Source: Planctomycetota bacterium (GTDB lineage: Bacteria > Planctomycetota > UBA1135 > UBA2386). From it: DNA of 64,000 nt. Location: positions 6,016,001-6,080,000 of the forward strand of contig JBKAGP010000001.1 of the NCBI GenBank assembly GCA_046290465.1, read 5' to 3'. The position numbers and the translations under genes are program-made. The stretch's first letter is position 1. Each line of letters begins with the position of its first letter. The notes beneath the pieces were generated by a model. That model was not told the origin of the DNA. It saw only the letters and a list, made by a program, of their open reading frames with translations, and searched no databases. Shown here in pieces: positions 9,396 to 14,014 of the stretch.

Positions 9396-11363
9396 TTACC
9401 GCACTCCGCGCCGCGACTCCACGGTGCAGTAGGCGGCGCCGACGCGGGTCGGGTGCGAGCCGTTCGGCGAACGGTCGATCGCCCACGGGCCGAGCATGCG
9501 GTCGCAGGCGATCAGCAGCACGGTGTCGGCGTCTGTGGTGTGCTTGTCCGGCACCTCGAAGGACTCGCCCTGGTAGCGCACGCACTTCGACAGCCGCACC
9601 TCGTCGAGCTTGCCCGCGAACTGCGACGTCGGCGCGCCGCTGCGGTTGACGTCGGCGCCGATCAAGAACGGCAGCGCATTGGCGCGGCGGCGACCGCTGC
9701 CGGCCTTGCGCGCGATCACCTTGCCGTCGAGGTAGAGCCGCACCTCGTTGCCGTCGAACACCCCGGCGACGTGGTGCCAGGTGCCGGGCTTCAGCACCGC
9801 CTCGGCGCTGCGCGCGGTGACGTAGCCCTTGCCGAGGTAGACCGAGAAGTCGAGCACGCCGTCGCTGCAGAAGATGCCGAACTCGCTGCTCTCGGTCTTG
9901 GCCAGCATGCCGCGGCGGCCTTGGAAGTCGTCGCCGTTGCACCAGCACTCGAGCGTGATCGGGCCGTCGGGCAGCGCGACCGCGTCGCTGTCGACCCGCA
10001 GGCAGCTGCGGCCGTCGAGCACCAGCACGCCGCCGTGCGCGGCCTCGAGCCGGTCGAGCCCCTGCGGCGGCGGCAGGTCGATCGTCATCGAGCGCGCCGG
10101 CAGGCCGACGCGGCGCTGCCGGGCGAGGTAGTCGCAGCGGACCTCCATCGTCGGCAGCGAGAACGGCGCGTCCGAGGCGCTGCGCTGGATCGCGAACGTG
10201 GTCGTGCCCTTGCTCTTCGGCGGCACCACCAGGTGCTGGTGGTCGGGGCCGAACGTCCACGGCGCACCGTCCTGCGGGATGACCTCGAGCTCGATCGCGC
10301 GCGAGCCGACATTCTCGAACTGCAGCGTCGCGACCGCGTCGACGGTGCCGTCGACGGTGATCGCCGGACCGTCGCCAGCGGCGACCAGGTTCTGCACCTG
10401 CGGCCGCAGGCTGCGGTGCACGGCCAGCGCTTCGCGCGCCATCTCGTCGGTGATCTCCTGCGGGTCCATCACGCCGCCGACCGGGATCGCGGCGACCTTG
10501 ATGCCCTCGGGGCGGACCGTGACGACGTGGTACTGGTGCAGGAAGCCCGCTTCGGGCGCATCCATGCCGAGGTGCGCGCCGACCGAGGCGACGGTGTAGT
10601 ACTCGATGCCGTCGCGCACGCCGCTGAAGCCCATGTAGTGGATGTGGCCCGCGAACACCGCGCGCACGTTGCCGTTGGCGGCGAGCGCCTCGTGCACCTT
10701 CTGCCAGTCGTCGCCGTACTGCTTCAGCCAGCGCGGATGGTGCAAGAACACGAACACGTGCCGGGCGTCCTTGGCCGTCTTCAGCGTGTCCTTCAGCCAC
10801 GAGAACTGCGCGTCGCTGATGCGCTGGCACGCGGGCTTGTTGAAGTTCTTCTCGCCGGTCTTCGGGTTGCCCTCGTCGGAGTAGAGCACGACGAACCAGC
10901 AGTCCTTGTGGTGCACCGCGTACCACAGCGGGCCGAACACGGTCTCGTAGTGCTGCTCGTGCTCGCCGTCGGGCTTGCCCGGTCCGCGCCAGTAGATGTC
11001 GTGGTTGCCGGCGACCGGATACCACGGCATGCGCAGCTTGCCCATCGAGGTCTTGTACTCGTCGGCCTGCGCCATCCACGGCTCGGTGGTGTTGTAGCCG
11101 TTGATCAGGTCGCCGACGGTCAGCACCAGGTCGGGGTCGAGCAGGTTGGTGTCGACCACGGCCTGGTCGAGCACCTTGATGCCCTCGGCGGGGCCGCCGG
11201 TGCGGTCGCCGAACACGACGAAACCGAATGCGTCGTCCTCCTTGGGCAGCTTCAGCAGCTGCTTGCCGGTGGGGCGGTTGGTCAGGATGCGCGGCGTCTT
11301 CTGCGCGACGACGGCGCTCGCCAGCGCGAGCAGGACACAGAGGGTGCGGACGAACATGCGCAC
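9396..11363 (-). CDS. Secreted calcineurin-like metallophosphoesterase with C-terminal LamG/concanavalin-like domain
   Basis: GDRTG, VGDLI, AGNHD, HHP and GHIH metal motifs; WHHVAGVFDG...LYLDG...FAGKLDEVRLS LamG motifs. Confidence 0.9.
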   Translation of the reverse strand: MRMFVRTLCVLLALASAVVAQKTPRILTNRPTGKQLLKLPKEDDAFGFVVFGDRTGGPAEGIKVLDQAVVDTNLLDPDLVLTVGDLINGYNTTEPWMAQADEYKTSMGKLRMPWYPVAGNHDIYWRGPGKPDGEHEQHYETVFGPLWYAVHHKDCWFVVLYSDEGNPKTGEKNFNKPACQRISDAQFSWLKDTLKTAKDARHVFVFLHHPRWLKQYGDDWQKVHEALAANGNVRAVFAGHIHYMGFSGVRDGIEYYTVASVGAHLGMDAPEAGFLHQYHVVTVRPEGIKVAAIPVGGVMDPQEITDEMAREALAVHRSLRPQVQNLVAAGDGPAITVDGTVDAVATLQFENVGSRAIELEVIPQDGAPWTFGPDHQHLVVPPKSKGTTTFAIQRSASDAPFSLPTMEVRCDYLARQRRVGLPARSMTIDLPPPQGLDRLEAAHGGVLVLDGRSCLRVDSDAVALPDGPITLECWCNGDDFQGRRGMLAKTESSEFGIFCSDGVLDFSVYLGKGYVTARSAEAVLKPGTWHHVAGVFDGNEVRLYLDGKVIARKAGSGRRRANALPFLIGADVNRSGAPTSQFAGKLDEVRLSKCVRYQGESFEVPDKHTTDADTVLLIACDRMLGPWAIDRSPNGSHPTRVGAAYCTVESRRGVR

Positions 11364-11477
11364 AGCTTGGCTCGGCCGGGTGCGGTCCGGAAGGCGATGC
11401 CCGAGAAGATCGCGCCAAGGTGCGGCGCGCGGCCACCGACCCGGCGCGGTGGCCGGGGCATCGACGGGGCGCGCGCC

Positions 11478-11515
11478 AAAAAAAGCGGCCGCCCGGAGCG
11501 AGTCACCGGGCGGCC
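11478..11515 (-). terminator. Intrinsic (Rho-independent) terminator
   Basis: 10-bp GC stem (11487-11496 / 11506-11515) with a 9-nt loop, followed on the minus strand by GC-TTTTTTT (A7 at 11478-11484). Confidence 0.85.
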
Positions 11516-11710
11516 CTGTTTCCCTTCCGTTCCCGAAGTTTCCGCCTCAATACCCGCGGGGCAGGCCATTGGACGGGAAGACGTCGGGGGGTGGCTCTGG
11601 CAAGCCGTGTGGCTATCGGGATAGCCGGTTCGAGGGGGAGCGAGAGGGAATTGGTTCGGTCGTTGCTCCTAGTTAGGCGCGTGCAAGCGGTGACGCGTCA
11701 GCCAGGAATG
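11478..11710 (-). ncRNA. Candidate ~230-nt structured sRNA or attenuating leader
   Basis: Lies between a sigma-54 motif and a terminator; several helices can be paired by eye; no convincing ORF. Confidence 0.5.
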
Positions 11711-11720
11711 TGGATTTGAT

Positions 11721-11736
11721 TGCAAAGGGCGGGCCA
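11721..11736 (-). promoter_or_regulatory. Sigma-54 (-24/-12) promoter
   Basis: Minus strand TGGCCCGCCCTTTGCA matches TGGCACG-N4-TTGCA with exact GG-N10-GC spacing. Confidence 0.65.
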
Positions 11737-11823
11737 ACGAGGGGGTGGTGTGCTCGGATGGCACCGCCGCCAGGATGTAAGAGGCGGAAACGTCACGGGG
11801 CTGTACCGCGGAAAACGAGAAAA

Positions 11824-12786
11824 ATGAGCAGCACGCAGAGCGACGCCCGGGGAATGCGCGTCGGCATCGTCGGTGCGGGGCGGACGCGCCAGGGCCTCGG
11901 CCCCTTCCTCGCGCGCTGGTTCGAAAAGGCCGGGGCGCGCGTGTCCGGGGTCTCTGGACGCGATCCGCTACGGAATCGTGACGCGGCCGTTTCGCTGGCG
12001 GAACAGTTGGGGCACGACGTGACCCCGTACGACGACGCGCGCACGCTGGCGCGCAACGTCGACGCGCTGGTCGTCGCCTGTCCGGTCGAGGGCCACGCCG
12101 ACGGCCTCGACGCGGCGCTCGCCGCCGGTGTGCCGTGCCTGTGCGAGAAGCCGTTCGTGCCGTGGTGCGACGCCGACGCCGGCCTCGAACGGGTCGCGGC
12201 GTTCCGGCGGCGCGGCCTGCTGCTCGCCGAGAACTGCCAGTGGCCGTTCGCGCTGGCGGCGCTCGACCAGCTGCACCCCGAGGTCCGGCGCACCCCGGTG
12301 CGCTCGCTGGTGATGCGCCTGTCGCCGGCGTGGCCGGGCCACGCGATGGTCGAGGATTCGCTGTCGCACGTGCTGAGCCTGCTGCAGGCGCTGGTGCCGC
12401 TGCCCGACGACGCGCGGGTCGTCGACGTCGCGCAGTCGGACGGCGGCGACGCGGCGGTCGCCAACGTGGTGCGGTTCGCTGTCGTCGGTGGCATCGACGA
12501 TGTCGCCGTCGAGCTCCTCCTGCAATGTTGTCCACAGCAGCCGCGGCCGGCGTGGTTCGCCGTCGACGGTGTGCGCCTCGATCGCGAACTCGGCGCCGAC
12601 TACGCGATCTCGTTCCGCAGCGGCGACGGGCGGCTCGTGAACGTGCAGGACCCGCTCGATGCGCTCGTGTATGGTTTCGTGGCAAACCTGAAGGCAAACC
12701 ACCGTGAACGAACCGACGCCCTCGCAGCCGCCATCGCCCTCCGCATCCGCCTCTACGCAGGCGTCCTCGCCGGCCTCCGCGGGTGA
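11824..12786 (+). CDS. Gfo/Idh/MocA-family oxidoreductase
   Basis: MRVGIVGAG Rossmann start; DALVVACP; CLCEKP motif. Start re-assigned to ATG at 11824. Confidence 0.8.
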   Translation: MSSTQSDARGMRVGIVGAGRTRQGLGPFLARWFEKAGARVSGVSGRDPLRNRDAAVSLAEQLGHDVTPYDDARTLARNVDALVVACPVEGHADGLDAALAAGVPCLCEKPFVPWCDADAGLERVAAFRRRGLLLAENCQWPFALAALDQLHPEVRRTPVRSLVMRLSPAWPGHAMVEDSLSHVLSLLQALVPLPDDARVVDVAQSDGGDAAVANVVRFAVVGGIDDVAVELLLQCCPQQPRPAWFAVDGVRLDRELGADYAISFRSGDGRLVNVQDPLDALVYGFVANLKANHRERTDALAAAIALRIRLYAGVLAGLRG

Positions 12787-14014
12787 GTCGACGGGCAAGG
12801 CGGTCGAGCGGGTGCACGACTTCGCCGGCAAGCTGCAGCAGCCGAGCATGTGGCCGAAGGTGCTCGACTACGTCAAGTGGCAGCGCGCGCTGCGCAAGGC
12901 CGAGGCCGACGGCAAGCCGCTGCCGGACATGCCGGATCTCGCGCCGCTGTCGATCAACCTCGACCTGACCACCGCGTGCAACTACGCGTGTGACCACTGC
13001 ATCGACTGGGACATCCTCAACAGCAAGGAGAAGCACGAGGACGAGCAGCTGCGCGCGTCGATCGCGCGCATGGCCGAGCGCGGCCTGCGCAGCGTGATCC
13101 TGATCGGCGGCGGCGAGCCGACGCTGTATCCGGGGTTCGTCGAGTTCGTCGCATTCCTGAAGCAGCTCGGGCTGTCGGTCTCGGTCGTCACCAACGGCAG
13201 CCGCGGCGACCGCATCCTGAAGGCGGCGCCGTACTTCACCGAGGGGGACTGGGTGCGCCTGTCGCTCGACTCGGGCAGCAACGACACGTTCGTTCGCATG
13301 CACCACCCGTCGAAGAAGTCGCTGACGCTCGACGAGATCTGCAGCTGGATCCCCAAGATCAAGGCGGCCAACCCCAAGCTCGCCATGGGCTTCTCGTTCG
13401 TGATCACGTGGGTCGGCGGCAGCCGCGGCGACGTCAAGGTCGTCGAGAACATCGGCGAGATGGTGATGGCGGCGAAGCGCGCCTCGGACGCGCAGTTCGA
13501 CTACATCTCGTTCAAGCCGTTCCTCGAGCGGCAGGAGGACGGCGCCGAGGTCATGGACCCGGCCAAGAGCGAGGCCGAGCTGCAGGCGGTGATCGCCCGC
13601 ATCCAGCAGAACCTCGAGGAGGCGCGCGCCGCGGTGCGCGACGACTTCAAGGTGCTCGCCAGCACCAACCTGCGCGTGCTGATGAGCGGCACCTGGAAGG
13701 ACTACACCCACCAGCCGAAGGTCTGCCACATGCAGATGCTGCGCCAGGTGGTCACGCCGCTCGGCACCTACAACTGCCCGGCGCACCGCGGCGTGCAGAA
13801 GGCCAAGCTCGGCGACAAGAACCTCTGGGAGGTGCCGGCCGCAGGCCAGCACGACACCGCGCGCGTGCTCGCCGACTTCGACGCCAAGGCGGAGTGCGGT
13901 GAGGTGACCTGCCTCTACAACAGCACCAACTGGTGGCTCGAGGAACTGGTCGCCGCGAGCGCGGAGCTGCCCGAGGAAGCGCCGGGCCGCGAGAGCCGCG
14001 ACTGGTTCCTGTAG
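12704..14014 (+). CDS. Radical SAM protein with C-terminal Twitch/SPASM-like cysteines
   Basis: CNYACDHC (CxxxCxxC); GGGEP; VTNGS; RLSLDSG; C-terminal VCH...YNCP...EC...TC. Confidence 0.9.
   Translation: MNEPTPSQPPSPSASASTQASSPASAGESTGKAVERVHDFAGKLQQPSMWPKVLDYVKWQRALRKAEADGKPLPDMPDLAPLSINLDLTTACNYACDHCIDWDILNSKEKHEDEQLRASIARMAERGLRSVILIGGGEPTLYPGFVEFVAFLKQLGLSVSVVTNGSRGDRILKAAPYFTEGDWVRLSLDSGSNDTFVRMHHPSKKSLTLDEICSWIPKIKAANPKLAMGFSFVITWVGGSRGDVKVVENIGEMVMAAKRASDAQFDYISFKPFLERQEDGAEVMDPAKSEAELQAVIARIQQNLEEARAAVRDDFKVLASTNLRVLMSGTWKDYTHQPKVCHMQMLRQVVTPLGTYNCPAHRGVQKAKLGDKNLWEVPAAGQHDTARVLADFDAKAECGEVTCLYNSTNWWLEELVAASAELPEEAPGRESRDWFL

Follow-up and report, generated by a model that had tools for sequence, protein, structure and literature searches.

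What does the minus strand encode between a metallophosphoesterase gene and a divergent oxidoreductase gene in this Planctomycetota genome, and does its product act on the downstream gene or elsewhere in the cell? The original prediction was of a sigma-54-driven structured RNA with its own terminator, serving either as a trans-acting small RNA or, ahead of the metallophosphoesterase gene, as a new attenuator or riboswitch. We analysed the locus in the window (the whole stretch of 64,000 nucleotides), in the genome to which it belongs (94% complete) and in relatives. Judged from sequence comparisons, positions 11478..11710 of the minus strand are a real gene for a structured small RNA, which carries a promoter and a terminator of its own; its expression is predicted and any partner putative.

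A predicted small RNA gene and its neighbors

The predicted non-coding RNA (11478..11710, minus strand; approximately 233 nt, with both ends placed by prediction) was found as a single copy in a search of the genome. Its downstream neighbor on the same strand (9396..11357) encodes a secreted metallophosphoesterase with a LamG domain (PF00149 and PF13385; 653 amino acids on record), and its divergent upstream neighbor (11824..12786, plus strand) encodes a Gfo/Idh/MocA oxidoreductase, most of whose named close relatives are labelled Planctomycetota. Among the 91 family genomes, 85 have the oxidoreductase gene, and in the examined loci a radical SAM gene directly followed it (11824-14014, plus strand, in the window). 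The U tract of the predicted RNA lies 120 nt from the likely ATG of the co-oriented phosphoesterase gene (11357), close to the original estimate of about 115 nt. Past the terminator and ahead of the promoter of the phosphoesterase gene there is another GC-rich hairpin, with 8 bp (11431-11454, minus strand).

An intrinsic terminator (11478..11515, minus strand), at which transcription would end near 11478, consists of a 10-bp stem (11515-11506 with 11496-11487), a 9-nt loop, two bases and U7 (11484-11478). This hairpin, already noted in the original description, stands out clearly (z -4.05; none of 200 shuffles equal). The fold of the whole RNA gave a z of -2.67 (2 of 200 shuffles equal), compared with -2.47 for the inner rod, -2.02 for the closed domain (11520-11650, 131 nt) and -1.04 for the 5' leader (11651..11710), which is variable and without conservation. 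Within the predicted fold we recovered the rod (11588-11532) and both small side hairpins of the original description; the one at 11626-11611, within the junction, differs in number and sequence among homologs, and the one at 11606-11593 is not conserved. The closing helix, which joins a C/U-rich tract (11636..11650) to a purine tract (11520..11534), has 13 of 15 possible pairs.

The closing helix and the rod had also been proposed to compete for the same bases. In this genome they do so in the folding model, where GGG 11534-11532 is taken up by an extension of the rod with a probability of 0.90-0.96 and by the inner closing pairs with a probability of 0.07-0.08. Here CUUCG is paired into the rod extension, and the outer closing pairs form with a probability of 0.45-0.64. 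However, of the 25 members described below only 10 can form the outer rod extension, so this competition does not represent a conserved two-state switch.

In agreement with the original view that the RNA belongs to no recognized family, Rfam 15 gave no matches in the window; at E<=10 there was one unrelated match of 9.5 bits outside the element, and 20 member loci gave eight scattered sub-threshold matches to different families. The SRP RNA (6160361-6160459), RNase P RNA (2158703-2159074) and tmRNA (6293791-6294143) of this genome lie elsewhere, and these identities were rejected. RF00013 matched the genome at one place only, over its full length, at G000:C1:83211-83420 (L031; 27.9 bits, below the Rfam cut-off), where a divergent 6S RNA of this lineage is probably encoded. 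We rejected a 6S identity for the element at 11478..11710, given that match and a closed domain of 131 nt where a 6S rod has approximately 180-190 nt; descent from the 6S-like RNA was likewise not supported, as local similarity was no better than with shuffles in most members. A small-protein gene was rejected because no short open reading frame common to the 25 members was found on either strand.

Distribution within one Planctomycetota family

A DNA search of 61 relatives gave three clear matches, all at the same locus. For 50 of 71 phosphoesterase matches and 70 of 85 oxidoreductase matches we inspected the sequence upstream of the gene, and two covariance models were run against all 91 family genomes, most of them fragmentary. 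Matches to an element upstream of tRNA-Asp (see below), antisense matches and plain terminators were dropped after reading, and one member (G036) was recognized by its motif and by eye rather than by a covariance model. This gave 25 homologs in 9 of the 41 genera (7, 9, 2, 2, 1, 1, 1, 1 and 1 members per genus), which retain the layout of the RNA to an extent that is more than chance. Twenty-one adjoin the start of the oxidoreductase gene, three lie elsewhere and one is at a contig edge; in G085, G020 and G066 the RNA is away from both usual neighbors. The shortest member, in G103, has about 106 nt.

None of 17 inspected matches in 151-genome samples of the order and class was a homolog (they were generic terminators), in searches that scored 26-43 candidates per genome and from which weaker matches and G215 fell outside the inspected set. 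A pattern scan of metagenomes returned 42 loci, of which three were members (near-copies of those in G011 and G102) and 39 were chance matches, and none of the 10 loci from a viral pattern scan scored with the covariance model. Among the genomes sampled, the RNA thus appears so far to be confined to part of one Planctomycetota family. Even within this genus it is present in only 7 of 15 genomes. In G007, G012, G006 and others the usual neighbors are directly adjacent and the RNA is absent, and in G001 the promoter and 5' part are kept while the core is deleted. Several close relatives have lost the RNA or a part of it, so it is dispensable. Two individual loci differ in other ways: the 3' junction motif is tandemly duplicated inside the RNA of G109 (L246), and a CRISPR-like repeat array lies directly upstream of the phosphoesterase gene in L069 (G103:C595).

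A rod, two junction motifs and a closing helix

The conserved core comprises the closing helix, with its 5' C/U tract and 3' purine tract, the rod, two junction motifs and the terminator hairpin. When each sequence was analysed on its own, free of any alignment, a single hairpin of 21-40 nt ended 0-6 nt before CUUCG in all 25 members; the purine tract and then a strong hairpin follow the rod. The conserved part of the rod, at 11542..11576 in the window, has a variable sequence (mean identity across genera 53%) and a tip that is often C-rich. In 16 of 25 members it surpassed each of 12 shuffled versions of the segment, and in G020, G066 and G104 it was not outstanding.

The only conserved letters flank the base of the rod, as a GCAUUC-like motif on the 5' side and ACUUCG on the 3' side. 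In this genome the 3' motif reads ACUUCGG (11533..11539), and the invariance of CUUCG in 25 of 25 members is partly circular since these letters served as the anchor by which members were selected. The 5' motif takes the form YAUUC in 14 of 25 members and differs here, reading GUCUUC immediately 5' of the rod (11577..11582); GCATTC occurs in 8 of 25 members, against 0.17 expected. The 3' motif also resembles a 16S rRNA hairpin and a three-copy repeat elsewhere in the genome; both likenesses were set aside because neither place has a rod or terminator.

The closing helix is, by comparison of sequences, a feature of the family. Taken over the members, 5' regions pair more stably with the purine tract of the same RNA than with that of another (-19.4 vs -17.7 kcal/mol; permutation p=0.00045 for 25 members, p=0.0007 for 21 de-duplicated members and p=0.0056 with one member per genus), p values that are overstated since the members are kin. 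With the region behind the terminator in place of the purine tract, the same comparison gave p=0.58. Matching changes on the two strands are clear in G081, G018, G085, G004, G036 and G013, and in 10 members, mostly of one genus (g58), the own 5' region ranked only 13th-22nd of 25. The covariation foreseen in the original prediction is therefore found in this helix, and the C/U tract, then read as a free anti-Shine-Dalgarno seed, is largely structural because it pairs best with the purine tract of its own member. Two further pairings were rejected, a pseudoknot between the rod tip and the purine tract (no cognate advantage, p=0.93) and a helix between the 5' motif and the 3' linker (p=0.42).

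Alignments gave a similar outline. A model-fitted alignment of 15 members had 96% of its cells paired and two-sided changes at 17 of 23 pairs, although such an alignment leans towards its model and kinship inflates the covariation. MAFFT/RNAalifold recovered the rod and terminator from the seven members of this genus, with two-sided change at 4 of 23 pairs, and misaligned the rod among 11 early members. We also examined contigs from four of 12 public runs, of which X1 and X4 are probably DNA. In a close relative represented by a run that is probably DNA, the core (11527-11600) differed at 3 of 74 positions while 11601-11743 had been replaced, in line with the comparative picture. The sole run on record as RNA (X6) covers just 10513-10777, inside the phosphoesterase gene, and another (X5), whose RNA origin is a guess, covers 11585-11834 and so extends beyond the predicted start, which makes it uninformative on expression.

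Promoter motifs among the members

The -24/-12 consensus of sigma-54 promoters served as the yardstick for the promoter motif. The minus strand carries TGGC-N7-TTGCA at 11736-11721, with GG (11735-34) and GC (11723-22) ten bases apart and a predicted transcription start at approximately 11710. This motif had been called exact; its GG/GC core and spacing are canonical, while one base of the -24 box is off the consensus, so the word applies to the core only. TGGC-N7-TTGCW occurs once within the 64-kb window. Genome-wide, this loose form is not enriched (95 sites vs 34-88 at other spacings) and the stricter TTGGCM form is (17 vs 3-8).

The motif (YGGC-N7-TTGC, or TCGC in G106) is found in 10 of 25 members, at the same spacing in all seven of this genus and in three of nine in a second genus (g58), and lies 44-247 nt upstream of the rod; a control scan at other spacings gave two chance matches. 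This genome has two rpoN paralogues (G000:C1:1164519-1164995 and 6172362-6172841), in line with the original prediction, and rpoN is present in 87 of 91 family genomes, mostly in two copies. This genus thus combines the motif at canonical spacing with rpoN, as expected of a sigma-54-dependent small RNA. Because rpoN is nearly universal, its copy number does not explain the presence or absence of the RNA, and a link between the two was rejected. In four members from other genera (G020, G069, G029 and G024), a -35-like hexamer is instead followed at a distance of 16-17 nt by RACGCT, a sequence similar to the -10-like hexamers that precede the phosphoesterase gene. The two readings overlap in G009, G011, G002 and G001. 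Sigma-54 drive as originally proposed is therefore predicted for the genus, where the motif is kept, and not for the family as a whole. In this genus the RNA would be made from a sigma-54 promoter, and in some other genera it may be made from sigma-70-like promoters.

Other elements in the lineage

A second conserved RNA-like element lies at G000:C1 ~3558520-3558690 (minus strand), between a divergent conserved gene and tRNA-Asp. It has a variable rod, a nearly invariant purine-rich stretch and a terminator with a U tract, and was seen here as well as in 13 relatives, which belong to several genera (L216, L218, L220, L223-L226, L230-L233, L235, L236). Its sequence is more conserved than that of the small RNA at 11478..11710. 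An intergenic repeat of 65-90 nt occurs in three copies (G000:C1 near 4027239, plus strand, and near 2684155 and 2960950, minus strand), in which a purine-rich part leads into a short inverted repeat; at least one copy lies beside foreign-looking DNA, and the repeat is possibly the end of a mobile element. In L009 (G012:C332) a thioredoxin-like open reading frame has an in-frame TGA at a redox-motif-like position and could encode a selenoprotein; tRNA-Sec is present in the genome under study.

Possible modes of action

We searched this genome for csrA (PF02599), hfq (PF17209), proQ (PF04352), Ro60 (PF05731, TROVE) and khpB. None was found in the 94%-complete assembly, in searches whose positive controls worked. 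An Hfq- or ProQ-dependent small RNA and a bacterial Y RNA were rejected on these grounds, and because none of the five was found, the RNA would work without Hfq, ProQ, CsrA, Ro60 and KhpB.

Our preferred reading, to which we assign a probability of roughly 0.45, is that the element encodes an independently transcribed small RNA that acts in trans and binds a protein through its junction. We favor it because the pattern of conservation fits a binding site: a fold kept by compensatory change, together with two short motifs at the base of the rod, suits such a site better than it suits a seed. In the folded RNA, the closing helix and the rod would frame an internal junction. This junction would be the site of protein binding, which is the weakest step and is suggested by the conservation pattern. 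The RNA may then serve in trans as a decoy or scaffold, titrating the protein when a sigma-54 activator fires. The small RNA genes of GlmY and GlmZ in the Enterobacteriaceae are described as having sigma-54 promoters which, depending on the species, may overlap with sigma-70 promoters or give way to them (PMC3045617), a turnover also seen among the present members, and GlmY is reported to act as a protein decoy (PMC4152352). The two systems differ in that there is no sequence or Rfam match, the phylum is another and hfq was not found here.

It is possible, with a lower probability, that the RNA pairs with mRNAs in trans without a chaperone, using as its seed the C-rich rod tip, ACUUCG or the CUCGCUCC motif. 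The independent promoter and terminator would suit this role, and a study of 6C RNA, a small RNA of high-GC Gram-positives (mycobacteria) with C-rich loops, provides a precedent for chaperone-free pairing (PMC6486639). The present RNA shares with 6C a chaperone-free setting, a GC-rich genome and a C-rich hairpin tip. It differs in that its single rod ends in CCC in only 14 of 25 members, and neither an Rfam match nor a target was found. CCC is more frequent at the rod tip than in terminator loops (5 of 25), and 9-10 of 25 5' regions, from four to five genera, contain CTCGCT, TCGCTC and CGCTCC, approximately ten times the genome background. However, a single genus supplies seven of the 14 CCC tips, the C content of the rod loops (56%) exceeds that of terminator loops (45%) by a small difference, and changes in the C/U tract go together with changes in the 3' tract. 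When four segments of the RNA were compared with 4,900 crudely predicted start regions, the best energies were about those of reversed-sequence controls. An SD-like motif is found at just 808 of 3,505 predicted ATG starts (crude gene calls), which speaks against this reading; many mRNAs of the lineage may be translated without a leader. Pairing with the element upstream of tRNA-Asp was weak (combined p=0.026 among kin), and 23% of random windows pair as well as or better than the site in this genome.

We consider it unlikely that the element is a cis-acting leader, an attenuator or riboswitch that originally belonged to an ECF sigma operon, controlled read-through by a ligand or protein at its junction and was kept after rearrangement. 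A closing helix around a conserved junction, with a terminator next to it, is a riboswitch-like layout, and every member is oriented towards its downstream gene. Five members from four genera precede ECF sigma genes and have poor U tracts, and since four of these five sigmas are closely related (57-76% identical), the RNA may still act there as a read-through leader. Yet the other 20 members precede genes of unrelated function, and this genome has no close relative of the linked ECF sigma (the best, at 40%, is to the protein of G069). In place of the consistent downstream function expected of a riboswitch or attenuator, we found six kinds of gene among the 25 members: phosphoesterase (11), methyltransferase (5), ECF sigma (5), DUF1592/cytochrome c (2), DcaP porin (1) and other (1). 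By this comparison, which the original prediction had proposed for telling cis from trans action, the RNA is independent of its downstream gene. Equilibrium folding predicted no antiterminator competing with the terminator in any of the 25 members, with a terminator probability of 0.86-1.0 in each.

The phosphoesterase gene, moreover, probably has a leaderless promoter of its own outside the RNA. In the window (11355-11369) and at homologous loci, a -10-like hexamer lies 5-8 nt before the ATG; in the window (11364..11369, minus strand) the distance is six bases. A hexamer at this distance from an in-frame start was found at 8 of 11 phosphoesterase loci with the RNA and at 22 of 38 without it, by a crude filter that missed the case in this window and a few of whose matches are not true starts. 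An attenuator of the phosphoesterase gene, as originally suggested, is thus unlikely: the RNA precedes six kinds of gene, the promoter motif is present with or without it and no antiterminator is predicted.

There was also no match at the locus to any Rfam cis element. In this genus the junction strands have what we take to be a superficial likeness to the glutamine riboswitch (RF01739) and to purine-type three-way-junction riboswitches. RF01739 gave no score at the locus at E<=10 and was rejected; the suggestive letters are not conserved beyond two genera, and there is neither loop-loop or pseudoknot covariation nor an antiterminator.

It is improbable that the locus holds no functional RNA, being instead a decaying remnant, a promoter and terminator whose gene was lost, or a DNA spacer that insulates the divergent genes. 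Such an origin would account for the patchy presence, the deletion of the core in G001, the genomes in which the neighbors are directly adjacent and a terminator stem whose sequence is of a type generic within this order. Against it, no remnant of a conserved open reading frame was found, and the relative in the public run keeps its core next to a replaced segment. Long-range compensatory changes in the closing helix and a rod kept at approximately 53% identity across genera also call for selection on a single strand.

The chance is slimmer still that the RNA is a miniature second promoter mimic, a 6S-like decoy that would bind a form of RNA polymerase other than the sigma-70 holoenzyme. 6S RNA has a closing stem, an internal unpaired region and a terminal stem, and it templates product RNAs. 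The RNA described here shares that overall arrangement and differs from 6S (RF00013) in its short terminal rod and in its closed domain, which has 131 nt here and fewer in several members, compared with 187 model positions. 6S RNA is described as binding RNA polymerase (PMC10578484). For the present RNA, the partner may be sigma-54, of which there are two paralogues in this family, or the ECF sigma that the RNA precedes in five genomes. If true, this would be a new RNA class and a feedback on alternative-sigma transcription in the Planctomycetota.

CsrB, RsmY and RsmZ sponges display GGA motifs in hairpin loops. That the RNA is a CsrA/RsmA sponge of this kind, as originally suggested for a short independent RNA with four clustered GGA motifs (confirmed in this copy), is refuted, short of a divergent CsrA that binds it, because csrA was not found and the predicted fold places the GGA motifs at the end of the rod and in the purine strand of the closing helix rather than in loops.

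Significance

The element is, on present sequence comparisons, a new RNA family within a known broad kind, the independent bacterial small RNAs. Neither Rfam 15 nor the literature searched, outside subscription papers and supplements, yielded a description of this family, and that literature showed no characterized regulatory small RNA of the Planctomycetota; the supplements of large motif catalogs (e.g., PMC5737381, PMC8040213) could hold the motif if it never entered Rfam. Its reach is limited to one family with mostly fragmentary genomes and a patchy presence. The two short junction motifs are ready targets for mutation in a search for the partner. As searches of the genome turned up no Hfq, ProQ, CsrA, Ro60 or KhpB, a conserved RNA linked to sigma-54 offers a testable entry to RNA regulation in a lineage that lacks the textbook machinery.
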